A stretch of DNA of 46,137 nt from a virus (IMGVR_UViG_644736364_000003); one strand, 5' to 3'; positions 3,966 through 12,169 are shown, numbered from the stretch's first letter. Numbers and translations: made by a program. Notes: generated from the letters alone by a model not told the origin.

Positions 3966-4611
3966 TTTGCTGCTCCTCATCATATCGACCCTGCAATGTC
4001 GGTTAGTTTCTCCACAAAACAGAGAAGAACACCTGCGGTGGTAGCCGCCCGGATGGATTGGGTTATGAGCCCGTCGTCCGATGATGTTCTTCTCTGTTTT
4101 GTAAAAAGAGCGGTACCAGCCGGAAGCAAGTGTACAAACTGGTACCGCCAAAGCAGTGGCTGTTGTGGTGACCGGTGCTGATCTCCGGCTTGCGGTTATT
4201 TCAGACTCTCACGGGCATTTAATTGCCCCGCCGAACAGCTCTTTTCCGCAATAGCTGCAATGTCTTTCGCGCATCAGCCTGCGCATTCACCACAACGCTG
4301 AGAGCACTTAGCCAGTTACGGCACCACACTTTGTCGCGGTTCCATAAATGCCCTCATCGTTGCACCCTGGTCTCTTCCCAGGCGTCAAACCGAATCGCCA
4401 CGCTGGTTAGGCGTCTTATCAGCATCCTCATTGACTTGCACATTCCGGCTATCTGGTTTGTTTGCCCGAGCAAGGAGTGGATTGTCCCCTTTAACGTCCC
4501 CAGACCGCTAACGACGCATGTGCCATACGCCGTGTTACAACCAAATTTTGTTAGTACCTTGTTTGTAGGTCTGGAGAGAAAGATAAAATGAAGTTGCGCA
4601 TTATGCAAGTG

Positions 4612-4634
4612 TTTTATTGCGAGATAAGCAATTT
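4612..4634. promoter_or_regulatory. Putative left operator (OL-like) repressor-binding site
   Basis: Motif TTTATTGCGAGATAAGCAAT nearly identical to a motif in the cI-cro intergenic region. Confidence 0.35.
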
Positions 4635-4687
4635 GGTGGGTAATGAAAAGCCACCTTCTGGTGGCTAATTGATGTTGAGGTAGGGGG

Positions 4688-5380
4688 TTAATTGTGTCGC
4701 TTAAGGGTCTGTGACTGACTGATTAAGACCTTTCCAAAGACCATAAACCGGTGTTCGTTTTCGCTGGTAATTCCCCATTCGCGGTAAATCTGATTATCAG
4801 AAATTACCAGCAGTTTATCAGGTATCATTTGCAGTCGTTTGACGTAAATTTTATCATCAAAACCAAATACATATATACCATCCCCATCAAACTGATTGAT
4901 ACTGATATCAACGAAGATGAGATCTCCTGGCTCAATGGTTGGACACATACTGTCCCCACGAACGTTGATAACTTTAATGTGATTTGCTGGTCGTCCACCA
5001 AACATCGATACAGCATTATCAGTTCTGTATTCAATGGCATGAATCACATCAATGACATCACCGCCCTGGATAAGGCCATTTCCCGCACTGGCACTGACAT
5101 CCAGCATTTCAATACGGAATACATCCTTCACCTGCGTAACATCCTCACTAATACTGTTTTTACATACAGTATTACTTTTGAGGTCTGAGGTAAAGAGATC
5201 AGCAATATCAACACCTAAGCTCCTGGCAATATTACTCAGGGCTTGTTCAGTGAATTGTTTCTGCTTACCTGTTTCGAGGCGCGAGATATTCGCCGCATCC
5301 ACTCCTATTGCTTCAGCGAGATCGGCGATTTTCATGTTCTTCGCCTGGCGAAGTTGTCTGACTCGATTTCCTATGTTCAT
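4688..5380 (-). CDS. cI: Prophage repressor, HTH-XRE plus S24 (LexA-like) peptidase domain
   Basis: 230 aa; N-terminal HTH (IADLAEAIGVDAANISRLETG), Ala-Gly cleavage site (ASAGNG), GDSM serine motif and downstream Lys (YVKRL). Confidence 0.85.
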   Translation of the reverse strand: MNIGNRVRQLRQAKNMKIADLAEAIGVDAANISRLETGKQKQFTEQALSNIARSLGVDIADLFTSDLKSNTVCKNSISEDVTQVKDVFRIEMLDVSASAGNGLIQGGDVIDVIHAIEYRTDNAVSMFGGRPANHIKVINVRGDSMCPTIEPGDLIFVDISINQFDGDGIYVFGFDDKIYVKRLQMIPDKLLVISDNQIYREWGITSENEHRFMVFGKVLISQSQTLKRHN

Positions 5381-5738: not shown

Positions 5739-6288
5739 GCATCATTGGAAAGTGGAAAAACAACCTGAGTGGTACGTGAAAGCTGTCAGAAAAACTATCG
5801 CGGCATTGCCTGGGGGTTACGCTGAAGCTGCTGACTGGCTGGATGTAACAGAGAACGCTTTATTCAACCGCCTTCGTGCAGATGGCGATCAGATTTTCCC
5901 GCTGGGATGGGCAATGGTTTTACAGCGCGCGGCTGGCACTCACTACATTGCGGATGCTGTCGCACAATCTGCTGGTGGGGTGTTCGTATCGCTTCCTGAA
6001 ATTGAGGAAGTAGAGAACGCCGATATAAACCAGCGCCTGCTGGAAGTCATCGAACAGATCGGGAATTACTCAAGGCAGATTCGTTCGGCAATCGAAGATG
6101 GGGTCGTGGAGCCACACGAGCAGACAGCAATTAATGATGAGTTGTATCTGTCAATTTCGAAGCTCCAGGAGCATGCAGCACTGGTCTACAAAATCTTTTG
6201 CGCTCCAGAAAAGAGTGACGCCCGCGAGTGTGCAGCTCCGGGCGTCGTGGCGTCGATTGCTTCTGGTTGTGGAGAAACTAACGCATGA
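5731..6288 (+). CDS. CII-like / YdaT-family regulatory protein (putative)
   Basis: 185 aa, GTG start after AGGAGG; position immediately after cro; family assignment from memory only. Confidence 0.4.
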   Translation: MGKHHWKVEKQPEWYVKAVRKTIAALPGGYAEAADWLDVTENALFNRLRADGDQIFPLGWAMVLQRAAGTHYIADAVAQSAGGVFVSLPEIEEVENADINQRLLEVIEQIGNYSRQIRSAIEDGVVEPHEQTAINDELYLSISKLQEHAALVYKIFCAPEKSDARECAAPGVVASIASGCGETNA

Positions 6289-6613
6289 ACAGTTTAACGG
6301 CAAATAACCGTTTGTCGCAACAGCTGGTGGTCAGCGTCGCTGAACACCTGTTGTTACGGCATGAATGCAGATTACCAAATCACCTGGCTGTAAGTAACCA
6401 CAGAGAACTTTACCTGACTGTGGGGGGCGAGTTGTGCAGGAACTTAACCGCTGGTTTCGTGACGGAAGAGGACTTTATGTTCATGTTATTCGTTGGGAGC
6501 CAGAAACACAGCGCGTTATCTATCTTCGCAAAGACTACCAGCATGAGTGCTTTAGTCCTTTGTGGAAATTCAGGCGTGATTTTGTTGAGTGTGAAGGACC
6601 ACCAGCACATTGA
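6285..6613 (+). pseudogene. Small gene apparently frameshifted at a G6 homopolymer (about 6422-6427); intact form would be about 110 aa
   Basis: ATG overlaps upstream stop (ATGA coupling); frame 0 open to 6430, then a protein-like ORF continues in the mod-2 frame (VVQELNRWFRDGRGLYVHVIRWEPETQRVIYLRKDYQHECFSPLWKFRRDFVECEGPPAH) to a stop near 6613. Confidence 0.3.
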
Positions 6614-6721
6614 TTCTGCCATTCCGGGACGTTACACTGTTCAGGCACCTTATAAAGCGGGTGTCGGGATTGGCGTCCTGGAATTGCATACGGCGACAAT
6701 TGGCGCGTTAGCGTCTTTTTT
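6610..6721 (+). promoter_or_regulatory. Leader element copy 1: sigma70-like promoter (TTGATT-17-TACACT) followed by intrinsic terminator hairpin (GGCGC-GTTA-GCGTC-T6); candidate short RNA/attenuator
   Basis: Promoter-like hexamers with 17-nt spacer; hairpin plus T-tract about 75 nt downstream; same architecture conserved in copy 2. Confidence 0.35.
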
Positions 6722-6887
6722 GTTGCTACAACTCAGCTATACCCAAATTATGGTGGGCTGGGTGGGGGCACCGAAAGGTGCGCCGGTTTCCGTATGCGCC
6801 GGTTACGCCAACCCTGCTCAGTTCACCACCAGCGAAATTGGCGTTTCCGGTGGTGGAAGTTATCCATTGCATACGGAGGCTGCCATC

Positions 6888-7433
6888 ATGGCTACGATCC
6901 CAACCCTCACTCAACCTGAAATTGCCATCGTTGATGGTCAGGCTGTTACTTCATCCCTGGCTGTTGCCAACTTCTTCTCCAAACGTCATGACGATGTACT
7001 GAAAAAGATCCGCACGCTTGAATGTTCCGCATCATTCACTGCCCGCAATTTTTCGGTGAGTGATTACACCGATTGCACAGGCCGCAAACTACCTTGCTAT
7101 CAAATAACCCGCGACGGCTTTGCGTTTCTTGCTATGGGTTTCACGGGTAAACGTGCTGCCCAGTTCAAAGAGGCATACATCAATGCCTTTAACCAGATGG
7201 AGAAACAGCTTTCAAAGCCCGCTGTACCGAGCGACGTTGCACATAACGCCAGCGTTCTCTATTCCTACATTTCATCAATTCATCAGGTCTGGCTGCAGCA
7301 GCTTTATCCTATGTTGGCAAAAGCCGAATCTCCGCTGGCTGTTAGCTTGTATGACTATATTAATGATGCTTCGGCGCTGGCCTGCCTCATAAATTTGTCG
7401 CTGAATCCTTCAGAGGTAAGGGGGCGTAAATGA
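6888..7433 (+). CDS. Rha-like phage regulatory protein, copy 1
   Basis: 181 aa from MATIPTL with GGAGG RBS; N-terminal motif (VDGQAVTSSLAVANFF...ITRDGFAFLAMGFTGKRAAQFKEAYINAFNQME) typical of Rha/pRha family. Confidence 0.7.
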   Translation: MATIPTLTQPEIAIVDGQAVTSSLAVANFFSKRHDDVLKKIRTLECSASFTARNFSVSDYTDCTGRKLPCYQITRDGFAFLAMGFTGKRAAQFKEAYINAFNQMEKQLSKPAVPSDVAHNASVLYSYISSIHQVWLQQLYPMLAKAESPLAVSLYDYINDASALACLINLSLNPSEVRGRK

Positions 7434-7475
7434 TCCGGAATATTTTCAAACTGTTTACCAATCGCCACCAGCATA

Positions 7476-7587
7476 TTGATTCTGCAATTCCGGGACGTTA
7501 CACTGTTCAGGCACCTTATAAAGCGGGTGCCGGGATTGGCGTCCTGAAATTCGCACATGCGCATAACCGCGCTTCAGCGGTTTTTTT
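7476..7587 (+). promoter_or_regulatory. Leader element copy 2: promoter-like TTGATT-17-TACACT plus terminator hairpin (ACCGC-GCTTCA-GCGGT-T7)
   Basis: Same arrangement as copy 1; terminator stem differs in sequence but keeps pairing (compensatory changes). Confidence 0.35.
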
Positions 7588-7750
7588 GCGCACGTTTCCT
7601 CACATCCAAATTATGGTGGGGCGTGCAGGGGCATCGAAAGATGCGCCGGGGTCATGTGCGACCGGTTACGCCAACCCTGTACGTCTCACCACCTCTGTGA
7701 TTGGCGTCCCATGTGGTGAGTTTTCAAAATTCGCACATGAGGATGTCACT

Positions 7751-8296
7751 ATGGCAACCACCCCTACCCAAACTCACCCTAAAATTGATGTTATCCATGG
7801 GAAGGCTGTTACCTCTTCTTTGGCCGTTGCCGAATATTTCTGCAAGCAGCACAAAAACGTTATTCAAAAAATCCAGACGCTTGAGTGCTCTGTTGAATTC
7901 ACTGAGCTGAATTTTCAGCCCAGTGATTACACCGATTGCACAGGCCGCAAACTCCCTTGTTACCAAATCACCCGCGACGGTTTTGCGTTTCTTGCCATGG
8001 GCTTCACGGGGAAACGTGCTGCCCGGTTCAAAGAGGCATACATCAATGCCTTTAACCAGATGGAGAAACAGCTTTCAAATCCCTCTGTACTGAGCGACGT
8101 TGCACATAACGCCAGCGTTCTCTATTCCTACATTTCATCAATTCATCAGGTCTGGCTGCAGCAGCTTTATCCTATGTTGGCAAAAGCCGAATCTCCGCTG
8201 GCTGTTAGCTTGTATGACTATATTAATGATGCTTCGGCGCTGGCCTGCCTCATAAATTTGTCGCTGAATCCTTCAGAGGTAAGGGGGCGTAAATGA
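7751..8296 (+). CDS. Rha-like phage regulatory protein, copy 2
   Basis: 181 aa from MATTPTQ; paralogue of copy 1 with near-identical C-terminal half. Confidence 0.7.
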   Translation: MATTPTQTHPKIDVIHGKAVTSSLAVAEYFCKQHKNVIQKIQTLECSVEFTELNFQPSDYTDCTGRKLPCYQITRDGFAFLAMGFTGKRAARFKEAYINAFNQMEKQLSNPSVLSDVAHNASVLYSYISSIHQVWLQQLYPMLAKAESPLAVSLYDYINDASALACLINLSLNPSEVRGRK

Positions 8297-8517
8297 TCCG
8301 GAATATTTTCAAACGGTTTACCAATCATACTTTCCGTTGTCCTCGTCCGGGTCAGTGGTACACCACGCCTGCAGGGCATGTTCTACGTGTTAGCCTGGTT
8401 GACCGTGAATGTCAGAAGGTGATTTGTGAACCGCTGGGCCGTAATTACCGCATCAGTATGCCGCTTATAGCCTTTTGCTCCGGAAAAAACATGAAGCATC
8501 TCGGAGGTGCAGCATGA
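8293..8517 (+). CDS. Hypothetical small protein (74 aa)
   Basis: ORF MIRNIFKRFTNH...; stop overlaps next gene start (ATGA); its first 11 codons are duplicated at 7430. Confidence 0.4.
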   Translation: MIRNIFKRFTNHTFRCPRPGQWYTTPAGHVLRVSLVDRECQKVICEPLGRNYRISMPLIAFCSGKNMKHLGGAA

Positions 8518-9823: not shown

Positions 9824-10476
9824 TGAGTAATAAATATTGCCAGGCGCTGGTGGAGCTGCGGAACAAACCAGCCCATGAACTGAAGGAAGTGGGCGATCAG
9901 TGGCGCACGCCGGACAACATTTTCTGGGGAATTAACACCCTGTTTGGCCCGTTTGTTCTGGATCTGTTCACTGATGGTGATAACGCCAAATGTGCCGCTT
10001 ATTACACTGCGGAAGACAACGCGCTGGCGCATGACTGGTCTGAACGTCTTGCGGAGCTTAAAGGTGCTGCCTTTGGTAATCCCCCGTACAGCCGCGCCAG
10101 TCAGCATGAGGGGCAATACATCACCGGCATGCGTTACATCATGAAACATGCCAGTGCCATGCGTGATAAAGGCGGGCGCTATGTTTTCCTGATCAAAGCT
10201 GCCACCAGCGAAGTGTGGTGGCCGGAAGATGCAGATCATATTGCTTTTATTCGCGGGCGTATTGGTTTTGAACTGCCTGCCTGGTTTATCCCGAAAGACG
10301 AAAAGCAGGTGCCAACAGGTGCTTTCTTCGCTGGTGCTATTGCTGTTTTCGACAAGACCTGGAAGGGACCGGCAATCAGCTACATAGGGCGCGATGAACT
10401 TGAGGCATGTGGTGAGGCGTTTCTGGCGCAGGTTCGCCAGCAGGCGGAAAAACTGGTCAGGGAGATGGCGGCATGA
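9823..10476 (+). CDS. Phage N6-adenine DNA methyltransferase (Dam-like, orphan)
   Basis: 217 aa; catalytic NPPY motif (GNPPYSRA); no adjacent restriction endonuclease. Confidence 0.8.
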   Translation: MSNKYCQALVELRNKPAHELKEVGDQWRTPDNIFWGINTLFGPFVLDLFTDGDNAKCAAYYTAEDNALAHDWSERLAELKGAAFGNPPYSRASQHEGQYITGMRYIMKHASAMRDKGGRYVFLIKAATSEVWWPEDADHIAFIRGRIGFELPAWFIPKDEKQVPTGAFFAGAIAVFDKTWKGPAISYIGRDELEACGEAFLAQVRQQAEKLVREMAA

Positions 10477-10799
10477 CGACGTTAACTCAATGCCAGCAGC
10501 AGGTGCTGGATATGCTGATTTCTTATCAGAAAGAACGTGGCTTCCCGCCAACCAATCAGGAGGTGGCAACCATGCTGGGATACCGTTCGGTGAATGCAGC
10601 GGTGGAGCATCTTCGCGCACTGGAGAAAAAAGGCGTCATCACGATAAAGCGTGGCGTGGCCCGGGGGATAACGCTTCATACTGCGATGAAGGACGACGAC
10701 AGCGAGGCGGTCGGGATTATCCGCGCACTGCTTGCCGGTGAGGAAAACGCAAGGCTGCGTGCAACCCACTGGTTACATGAGAGGGGCCTGAAAGTATGA
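10473..10799 (+). CDS. LexA N-terminal DNA-binding-domain protein (no peptidase domain)
   Basis: 108 aa; QQQVLDMLISYQKERGFPPTNQEVATMLGYRSVNAAVEHLRALEKKGVI closely parallels the LexA winged-helix DBD. Confidence 0.7.
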   Translation: MTTLTQCQQQVLDMLISYQKERGFPPTNQEVATMLGYRSVNAAVEHLRALEKKGVITIKRGVARGITLHTAMKDDDSEAVGIIRALLAGEENARLRATHWLHERGLKV

Positions 10800-11191
10800 A
10801 GCTAATACTGCCTTTTCCGCCCAGCGTGAACACGTACTGGCGACACCCCAACAAAGGGGCGTTTGCTGGTAAGAGCCTGATAAGCGCGGCGGGGCGAAAA
10901 TTCCAGAGCGCGGCGTGTGCAGCAATAGTTGAGCAGTTACGTCGTCTGCCGAAACCAACGTCGGCACCTGCTTCAGTGGAGATCGTGTTGTTTCCTCCGG
11001 ATAACCGGATCCGCGATCTGGACAACTATAACAAGGCGCTGTTTGACGCCCTGACCCACGCGGGTGTGTGGGAAGACGACAGTCAGGTGAAAAGAATGCT
11101 GGTGGAGTGGGGACCGGTTATCCCGGAGGGGAAGGTCGAGATCACTATCAGTAAGTACGAAAAAGCGAGTTGCAAATTAGCAACTCGGTAA
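10796..11191 (+). CDS. rusA: RusA Holliday-junction resolvase
   Basis: 131 aa; N-terminal LPFPPSVNTYW and Asp-rich motifs (DLDNYNKALFDALTHAGVWEDDSQV) typical of RusA. Confidence 0.85.
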   Translation: MKLILPFPPSVNTYWRHPNKGAFAGKSLISAAGRKFQSAACAAIVEQLRRLPKPTSAPASVEIVLFPPDNRIRDLDNYNKALFDALTHAGVWEDDSQVKRMLVEWGPVIPEGKVEITISKYEKASCKLATR

Positions 11192-11353
11192 CGGAATTGA
11201 GCAACACCCTAAATTTGGGTATTACCTCGTTAAAGATACTGTATTTATGAACAGTGTATCCTTGATAACTATTAAAAATCGCAGTAAGTTCATCCTGCAT
11301 CAACGAAAAGGGAGTGCAGTCCCGCTCGTGGATAAAAATTTGTGGAGAAACCA

Positions 11354-12169
11354 ATGAATCAGTTGCTTGTAATTGATGGCGTTTCTGTGCGCCAGTACTT
11401 CGAATCTAACTACTGTCTTAACGACCTTCAGAAAGCAGCTCTTCTTGCCGCTGGTGAGAATCGCTCCTCCCGTTCGCTGGAAGTTCACGAGTTTATGCGT
11501 CGTCCTGAAACGAAGGCTCTTGTGGAATTATTGGAAGAAGAAACTACGGGAGATTCCCGTAGTATTCCTGTCATCACCATTCAGGGGCGCAATGGTGGGA
11601 CGTATGTCTGTAAAGAGCTGGTCTATGCATATGCAATGTGGATCAGCCCGGCATTCAGCTTAAAAGTGATACGTACTTTTGATGCGCTTCATAATTCATC
11701 ACCAGAAGAAACCACATCCGACAAAATTAAATCCGGGGTCATTCTGCTTGAATCAGCAGCAAAGACTCTAAATCTGTCAAACTCCTCGAAACTTGGTGCA
11801 TACCAGAAATTATCAAAGGTAGCTGGTCTTCCTGAACTTATGCCGATCTATGCCATTGATGCACCTGCTGATGCGCCAGATGGTTCAAGCCGCCCTACGC
11901 TGTCGCTGAGTGCACTGCTGAAGCAGTATGGTATCCGCCTGACGGCTAATCAGGCATATCACCAGATGGCGAAGCTGGGGATCGTTGAACAACGCGAACG
12001 ATACAGCCGTACCGCGATTAACAACATCAAAAAATTCTGGTCGCTGACCGCGAAAGGCTGCATGTTCGGCAAGAACATCACCAGTCCTGCAAATCCGCGC
12101 GAGACGCAGCCGCATTTCTTCGAATCCCGATTTCCTGAGCTGTTAAAGCTGCTCGATACCGTTCATTGA
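11354..12169 (+). CDS. KilA-N domain protein (antirepressor-like)
   Basis: Start MNQLLVIDGVSV after GGAG RBS; KilA-N-like N-terminus; preceded by 150-bp AT-rich spacer. Confidence 0.6.
   Translation: MNQLLVIDGVSVRQYFESNYCLNDLQKAALLAAGENRSSRSLEVHEFMRRPETKALVELLEEETTGDSRSIPVITIQGRNGGTYVCKELVYAYAMWISPAFSLKVIRTFDALHNSSPEETTSDKIKSGVILLESAAKTLNLSNSSKLGAYQKLSKVAGLPELMPIYAIDAPADAPDGSSRPTLSLSALLKQYGIRLTANQAYHQMAKLGIVEQRERYSRTAINNIKKFWSLTAKGCMFGKNITSPANPRETQPHFFESRFPELLKLLDTVH

Follow-up and report, generated by a model that had tools for sequence, protein, structure and literature searches.

A short LexA-family gene in a lambdoid prophage

Our analysis concerned one stretch of viral DNA, IMGVR_UViG_644736364_000003 (46,137 nucleotides, referred to as the window), and within it a gene encoding a 108-amino-acid (aa) protein of the LexA family. 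The window represents a lambdoid prophage with an integrase at its left end. The gene was identified from the list of open reading frames (ORFs) and from the sequence itself, by matches to Pfam, PHROG and NCBIfam, and by an identical coding sequence (CDS) in Escherichia coli O104:H4. It begins with ATG and ends with TGA, in exact agreement with the coordinates and length given for it in an earlier, sequence-only reading of the window. The features of the gene and its product are listed below, with AF2 standing for the AlphaFold2 model of the protein and pN and pS for the proportions of nonsynonymous and synonymous differences.

10473..10799, plus strand: gene for the 108-aa LexA-family protein
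10461..10464, plus strand: Shine-Dalgarno sequence GGAG, 8 nt 5′ of the ATG, read from the sequence
10473..10676, plus strand: LexA-type winged helix-turn-helix (HTH), residues 1-68 (PF01726, AF2 secondary structure, Foldseek)
10587..10613, plus strand: recognition helix, residues 39-47, SVNAAVEHL (alignments; the E. coli LexA counterpart is SPNAAEEHL)
10695..10781, plus strand: conserved helical hairpin, residues 75-103, with helices at 75-87 and 93-103 (AF2, relatives, pN versus pS)

The N-terminal part of the protein was assigned to LexA's DNA-binding domain by several searches. Specifically, residues 1-65 matched the entire 65-position Pfam model LexA_DNA_bind (PF01726) with E=2.9e-19 and 69 bits (cutoff 23.7), and in a phmmer search of the PDB sequences residues 2-70 and 2-90 aligned with E. 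coli LexA (2-70 and 2-86) at E values of about 1e-15. The AF2 model, with an overall predicted local distance difference test (pLDDT) score of 78.5, places helices at residues 6-22, 28-35 and 40-52 and strands at 56-58 and 66-68, the latter forming a two-strand wing. Foldseek superimposed this head on DNA-bound E. coli LexA (3JSO_B) with a root mean square deviation (rmsd) of 1.1 Å over 67 columns at 51% identity and also matched it to PDB entry 1LEA; identity to DNA-bound LexA ranged from 49 to 52% in the phmmer and Foldseek alignments. The Pfam scan found no Peptidase_S24 domain in the protein, whose chain stops at residue 108 with RusA directly following, and the S24 peptidase and dimerisation domain that carries the Ser119-Lys156 dyad of LexA is missing. 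The lexA equivalog model TIGR00498 was matched at positions 1-91 of 203 only, with a score of 70.4 that falls below the cutoff of 110.95, which places the protein outside the equivalog. The description in the sequence-only reading, a LexA N-terminal winged helix lacking the S24 domain, was therefore correct, and as a LexA-type winged helix without an autoprotease the protein is incapable of RecA-stimulated self-cleavage of the LexA kind. PADLOC returned one marginal match of the winged-helix type for the protein (CARF3--CARF, E=3.9e-4), and the Rfam scan found no match.

The same reading had called the protein an orphan, a label that has to be given up. The identical CDS is present in RefSeq as WP_000210143.1, "LexA family transcriptional regulator", from E. 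coli O104:H4 and many other strains, and annotated copies exist in thousands of genomes. Searching 5426 complete E. coli genomes for near-identical genes (nucleotide identity of 90% or more) gave 2232 positive genomes, some with as many as four copies, and such genes also occur in 50 phage records including mEp460, SfII, SfIV and many phages encoding Shiga toxin (Stx) 2c; the mEp460 record labels it "LexA DNA binding domain protein". Residues 1-108 aligned with positions 1-106 of the 106-position profile of PHROG 362 ("transcriptional repressor", E=1.2e-59). Our literature searches found no functional or experimental study of this PHROG 362 family, and the LexA-head family of lambdoid phages is widespread, annotated and, as far as we found, experimentally uncharacterised. 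No K-12 strain is known to carry the gene, which may explain why it drew no attention.

An exhaustive profile search showed that relatives with 40-50% identity share the architecture of a head followed by a hairpin, mostly at lengths of 104-135 aa with one call of 165 aa, and a profile search of genome contigs with the alignment of close relatives returned Shigella and Citrobacter loci only. When the window gene was compared with its relatives, pS was 0.7-0.9 (saturated) and pN 0.19-0.38, in the DNA-binding domain and the tail alike. Since pN is far below pS and since length and tail are shared by the relatives, we infer that the gene encodes a real short protein under purifying selection and not a truncation artefact or a decayed lexA.

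Other arrangements of the domain were also seen. Two tandem LexA_DNA_bind domains per chain, with no S24 domain, occurred in P0128, P0129, P0130, P0138, P0139 and P0144 (141-352 aa), one of the tandem proteins being fused to a PTPS domain; in these, two LexA heads may form a "pseudo-dimer" within a single chain. P0025, P0092 and P0098 carry Dam and LexA_DNA_bind Pfam domains in a single chain of about 180 aa and are possibly fused or frameshifted calls. The Dam annotation of ST64B sb44 (L015, 11275-12168) is unusually long, yet tblastn detected no LexA-like sequence in ST64B.

Recognition surface and C-terminal hairpin

The recognition helix of the window protein is identical to that of E. coli LexA at 7 of 9 residues. 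According to PMC3091678 and PMC13416735, helix III of E. coli LexA contacts DNA through S39, N41, A42, E44 and E45. In our alignments four of these five contacts (S39, N41, A42 and E45) are retained and the fifth, E44, is replaced by V44, so that the loss of DNA-contacting residues, which the sequence-only reading had named as an argument against its own proposal, is seen at one helix-III position and not at the other four. Further LexA residues are kept in the helix (A43, H46, L47) and in the wing (K53, G54, R64, G65), and R28 of LexA corresponds to N28. With E44 and R28 replaced, the protein probably differs from LexA in specificity or affinity and may occupy no more than some of the SOS boxes or related sites; the roles ascribed to E44 and R28 come from a secondary citation combined with our conservation analysis.

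For this analysis the column entropies of 18 non-redundant members of the short family were compared with those of 13 full-length LexA sequences. R28, F37, S39, N41, A42, A43, E44, H46 and L47 were invariant in the sampled LexA sequences. In the short family positions 28, 37, 40, 44, 45 and 46 were among the most variable (1.7-2.6 bits), and of the helix-III residues S39 alone was invariant and N41 nearly so. Extracted from all profile hits, the recognition helix reads S.NAAE[E/D/Q]HL in LexA-type sequences; position 44 is never acidic in the short hairpin family, being V, A, T, F, L or Y in every member. Within the subfamily of the window protein itself the recognition helix is conserved and close to that of LexA.

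Behind a linker that is of low confidence in the AF2 model (residues 69-74), the chain ends in the helical hairpin, which has a pLDDT of about 83-85 over residues 81-100, that is, over most of its length. Its hydrophobic pairs I82/I83, L86/L87 and W100/L101 are conserved, and the pattern is kept in the relatives with 40-50% identity. We propose, as the most economical reading, that the hairpin is a dimerisation element standing in for the C-terminal domain of LexA. HMMER carries the LexA alignment through residues 78-90 and sets LLAGEE opposite the cleavage region VAAGEP (Ala84-Gly85) of LexA, so that A88-G89, nearly invariant in the close subfamily, aligns with A84-G85. This similarity may have been inherited from a full-length LexA ancestor.

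Operon setting and SOS boxes

From the integrase onwards the window encodes cI (S24), cro, a CII-like protein, Rha/Ash, an HTH_36 replication gene, PerC, Dam and the LexA-like protein, followed 3′ of the LexA-like gene by RusA, KilA-N, DUF968 (HNH-like) and Q. Two of these genes are needed below.

10796..11191, plus strand: gene for the RusA Holliday-junction resolvase (Pfam RusA; near-constant downstream neighbour in loci L002-L025)
4688-5380, minus strand: cI repressor with HTH_3 and Peptidase_S24 domains (domain scan)

The start of the LexA-like gene overlaps the Dam stop (ATGA, 10473-10476) and its stop overlaps the RusA start (ATGA, 10796-10799), and judging from these overlaps Dam, the LexA-like gene and RusA look translationally coupled. 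The order LexA-like gene, RusA, optional KilA-N or Rha-ANT gene, DUF968 and Q is kept down to about 40% identity. The DUF968 protein of the window has an HNHc_6 match, and its KilA-N neighbour a PADLOC match to the candidate system PDC-S22 (E=7.6e-10). A simple scan of the plus strand near the LexA-like gene gave no match to a promoter or terminator. In lambda, the genes lying between those for replication and Q belong to the delayed-early class, for which pR is the promoter. The LexA-like gene occupies this position, and its product should therefore, by analogy, be made only after inactivation of cI or upon infection. That cI is of the S24 type, as the sequence-only reading had stated for the same prophage, was borne out by the domain scan.

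Some further observations were made in this part of the prophage. Two consecutive genes with Ash and Rha domains lie at 6285-7433 and 7430-8296, where the O104:H4 prophage has one, and MIRNIFK. occurs as the N-terminal peptide both at 7430 and at 8293 (ORF 8293-8517), which indicates a local duplication. The ~540-700 bp downstream of cI (4152-4687) carry no annotated gene in the RefSeq counterpart, and the only sizeable ORF there (4223-4591, plus strand) is unannotated. A 22-bp near-perfect palindrome, CGAGTTGCAAATTAGCAACTCG (11166-11187), lies at the RusA ORF's 3′ end, with no T-run after it on the plus strand.

The window contains four exact matches to CTGT-N8-ACAG, compared with 0.57 expected. 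Two of these are excellent 20-mer SOS boxes, TACTGTTTTTACATACAGTA at 5152-5171 (17 of 20) and TACTGTATTTATGAACAGTG at 11237-11256 (16 of 20); a score of 16 was reached once in 50 shuffles. Both boxes lie within larger features.

11215..11256, plus strand: SOS-type promoter/operator between RusA and KilA-N (TTGGGT, 16 nt, TACTGT; the -10 is the left arm of TACTGTATTTATGAACAGTG)
5149..5174, no strand assigned: 26-bp perfect-arm palindrome TAATACTGT-N8-ACAGTATTA within the cI ORF (linker codons ~70-76), holding the 17/20 SOS box

The box at 11237-11256 is a candidate LexA-type operator in the 150-bp intergenic region between RusA and KilA-N (11342-12169), and LexA may control KilA-N directly, already in the prophage state. 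The intergenic variant with this box was detected in 184 of the 5426 E. coli genomes, 2232 of which have the LexA-like gene, and in SfIV; other KilA-N alleles (mEp460, SfII) adjoin RusA directly and lack the intergenic SOS promoter. As for the box inside cI, its CTGT and ACAG arms have been kept by the cI genes of SfII (18/20), ST64B (16/20) and a Klebsiella phage (17/20). This box falls in the linker "NTV.KNS", the most variable part of the encoded protein, and its conservation in spite of that variability points to selection acting on the DNA itself to keep a LexA site within cI, probably one for host LexA.

Furthermore, SOS boxes were found in front of a divergent branch of the family. This branch, subfamily B, comprises P0132, P0133, P0137, P0141, P0166 and P0201, of which P0132, the only member scanned, matches PHROG 362. 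Its gene is not located behind Dam; it sits in an operon that has a strong SOS box at its head.

L009, 5531-6408: SOS-headed LexA-like operon
L019, 513-1518: SOS-headed LexA-like operon
L020, 5561-6357: SOS-headed LexA-like operon
L021, 4907-6070: SOS-headed LexA-like operon
L027, 4386-5390: SOS-headed LexA-like operon
L030, 4385-5324: SOS-headed LexA-like operon

All six divergent loci with enough upstream sequence, which are those listed and amount to about four independent upstream contexts, have such a box 5′ of the operon. The boxes score 15-18 of 20 with perfect CTGT and ACAG arms, and the box overlaps the promoter -10 in L019, L020 and L021 and abuts it in L009; L027 and L030 share the L019-type upstream sequence. 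The combination of promoter and box at 11215..11256 in the window matches the architecture in L019, L020 and L021. The optional first gene of the operon encodes DinI in L019, L027 and L030 and a 95-aa stand-alone RecA C-terminal-domain protein in L021 and is missing elsewhere. It is followed by a conserved protein of 75-85 aa (phrog_1813), the LexA-like protein, a 67-aa protein (phrog_1212), RusA, DUF968 and Q. RusA is missing from L019, L027 and L030, where DUF968 comes after a small ORF, and the phage repressor in L009 has no S24 domain.

Judging from these layouts, the LexA-head family appears to have come repeatedly under LexA control beside known or likely RecA modulators. The arrangement in subfamily B would suit a protein that shapes or ends the SOS response and that may control its own gene, as LexA does, and the operon may be an SOS-driven induction or an SOS shut-off operon. 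As a separate observation, defence or counter-defence cargo was noted near the Q/lysis region of related prophages (L020 9794-11390, L027 6967-8359 and L030 9536-9829), the types being AcrVA2-like plus Cas1-like genes, Kiwa KwaA/KwaB and an Acb2/Tad1-hairpin protein.

Possible functions and comparison with known systems

As the most likely mechanism we tentatively favour a dimeric, RecA-insensitive LexA-type repressor that acts after induction and binds SOS-box-like palindromes with shifted specificity. The LexA-like protein would be produced only on prophage induction or new infection and would dimerise through its hairpin, and because most of the LexA recognition helix is retained, the dimer would be expected to bind a CTGT-type, SOS-box-like palindrome. 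Since the protein is uncleavable, it could reinstate repression of the LexA type once RecA* has destroyed host LexA. Likely sites would be SOS-box promoters belonging to the phage or to co-resident elements, possibly also those of host SOS genes, with the effect that SOS-driven expression would be turned into a pulse and the SOS response damped during lytic growth. A more far-reaching version, which we regard as doubtful, is that the prophages in about 40% of complete E. coli genomes carry a RecA-proof LexA paralogue which silences SOS-box promoters again after the cleavage of host LexA (host SOS genes, antirepressors and toxins of rival prophages, colicins and the SOS-driven genes of the phage) and, together with DinI or a RecA C-terminal decoy, makes up an SOS shut-off operon in related phages.

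Several observations weigh against a repressor of this kind. E44 and R28, invariant in the 13 sampled LexA sequences, are highly variable in the short family (2.4-2.6 bits), and several subfamily B proteins lack both E44 and E45 (SSNAVLLHL, SQNTVFIHL). A Citrobacter relative with 68% identity has the recognition helix SVNTITGHL, with four changes compared with NAAVEHL in the window protein, and such differences among close relatives would speak against a single invariant target; as the enterobacterial SOS box is invariant, a diversifying recognition surface weakens strict LexA mimicry. Spacing and cooperativity of LexA depend on its C-terminal dimer, which is missing here, with the hairpin as the presumed replacement. 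The distribution of the boxes points the same way. ST64B and the Klebsiella phage keep the box inside cI and have no LexA-like gene, and there are no boxes within several kb of the gene at the gene-carrying loci L005-L008, L023-L026 and L028. We have therefore rejected the phage SOS boxes as specific evidence for the target of the LexA-like protein, given that they do not co-vary with the gene. The boxes of the window prophage are most simply read as sites for host LexA, and host LexA alone accounts for those 5′ of the subfamily B operons. Finally, a full-text search found one characterised truncated LexA homologue encoded by a phage, namely gp6 from GIL01, a tectivirus of Bacillus. It is essentially LexA's DNA-binding domain, binds its own palindrome GaCACAnnTGTGaC over the -35 of P3, a late promoter, and activates P3 (PMC6182141). 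By analogy, such a protein need not be a LexA mimic.

The idea put forward in the sequence-only reading, an uncleavable mimic that uncouples SOS genes from RecA, thus survives in part: it agrees with the missing autoprotease, the four retained contacts and the link between the family and SOS-box promoters, and it is at odds with the replacement of E44 and R28, the varying recognition surface, the independence of phage boxes and gene, and the different behaviour of gp6.

It is also quite possible that the protein is a phage-specific transcription factor descended from a LexA head, which acts as repressor or activator at a private, non-SOS operator, as gp6 does. Loss of E44 and R28 and the hypervariability of positions 28, 37, 40 and 44-46 would be expected of such a factor, the four recognition-helix changes in the relative with 68% identity are the pattern of co-evolving operators, and the synteny with RusA, DUF968 and Q held down to 40% identity would also be in keeping with it. 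The operator itself did not emerge from our search. Perfect palindromes with 5-6 bp arms common to four divergent loci were trivial hits only, and those common to six loci with the same recognition helix were all within coding sequence. A recognition helix identical to that of E. coli LexA at seven of nine positions is not what a private operator would lead one to expect, and gp6 shows no sequence-level kinship with the window protein. Moreover, late transcription in lambdoid phages is driven by Q antitermination and requires no such activator.

We consider it improbable that the protein is a DNA-binding accessory of a RusA/DUF968 recombination or nuclease module, where it would target or modulate the enzymes and not act on transcription. 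The genes are adjacent or nearly so in nearly all loci, many with overlapping stop and start codons, the DUF968 protein has an HNHc_6 match, and DUF968 follows even where RusA is missing (L019, L027, L030). However, gene order in the nin-like regions of lambdoid phages is often kept without functional coupling, inserted genes part the LexA-like gene from RusA in L005, L009 and L021, and the fold offers nothing beyond a winged helix of the transcription-factor type.

Direct interference with host LexA, either by competition for half-sites without repression or by LLAGEE engaging the catalytic domain of LexA as decoy or substrate, appears very improbable to us, although residues 78-90 align with the linker and cleavage region of LexA and A88-G89 hardly varies within the close subfamily. 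LLAGEE forms a predicted turn between the two helices and not an extended strand, and A-G becomes A-N in close relatives, in which G89 is N, and is lost to unrelated residues in the wider family; a role as cleavage-site mimic or decoy was rejected as unlikely on these grounds, and nothing in the analysis pointed to contact with LexA. That the gene is a non-functional remnant of a captured lexA can practically be dismissed, for although the protein looks like a truncated LexA, its length and tail are kept across 40-98% identity, pN is far below pS in both domains, and thousands of intact copies exist, with the gene in an operon that looks translationally coupled.

If the LexA-type repressor that we favour did occupy SOS boxes, a common prophage gene of E. 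coli, Shigella and Shiga toxin-producing E. coli (STEC) would free part of the SOS regulon from its coupling to RecA, with possible effects on mutagenesis, on the induction of co-resident prophages including Stx phages, on colicin release and on responses to antibiotics, and under the more far-reaching version prophage induction would actively end the host DNA-damage response. If the protein instead has a private operator, it would be another phage regulator derived from a captured LexA head, like that of GIL01. The gene is very common in prophages of pathogenic E. coli and Shigella, and its product is small and soluble-looking.

Among known systems, the closest match is to annotated genes of PHROG 362 in lambdoid phages (mEp460_046, SfII_44, SfIV_43 and the SfV homologue), which are 96-100% identical, have the same order of Dam, LexA-like gene, RusA, KilA-N, DUF968 and Q, and show no structural difference. 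Host LexA (TIGR00498; 1LEA, 3JSO) shares with the window protein the winged helix (1.1 Å rmsd, about 50% identity over residues 2-70), seven of nine residues of the recognition helix, the wing residues K53, G54, R64 and G65, and a weak residual similarity through the linker and cleavage region. The window protein differs in having no S24 catalytic and dimerisation domain, in V44 and N28, and in its two-helix hairpin at the C-terminus; it is phage-encoded, belongs to a lytic early operon and scores below the equivalog cutoff. Absence of Peptidase_S24 likewise distinguishes it from the S24 phage repressors resembling lambda cI, including the cI of its own prophage with HTH_3 and Peptidase_S24. 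The tum-orf97 genes of coliphage 186 and the Gifsy antirepressors reportedly represent SOS-controlled antirepressor/DinI operons of temperate phages. The divergent relatives resemble such operons in that an SOS-box promoter heads an operon with DinI, small proteins and the LexA-like gene, whereas the window gene is in a cI-controlled operon and not behind an SOS box. The 186 tum and Gifsy-type systems are not known to include a protein with a LexA DNA-binding domain.

Among characterised systems, the closest is gp6 of GIL01. At the P3 promoter of this virus host LexA together with gp7 represses (PMC6182141). Like the window protein, gp6 is a phage-encoded LexA head without protease; its expression follows the SOS-dependent derepression of the early genes, and LexA boxes form part of the circuitry. 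Unlike the window protein, gp6 has 66 aa and no C-terminal hairpin, and lysogeny of GIL01 is kept by host LexA, whereas the lambdoid phage of the window has its own S24 cI. BLASTP of gp6 against the window protein gave no alignment, the best PHROG of gp6 is 3502, with a weak match to 362, and the key residue K38 of gp6 corresponds to N41. From this comparison gp6 and the window protein appear to be independent captures of the LexA head, gp6 being an analogue and not a member of the family.

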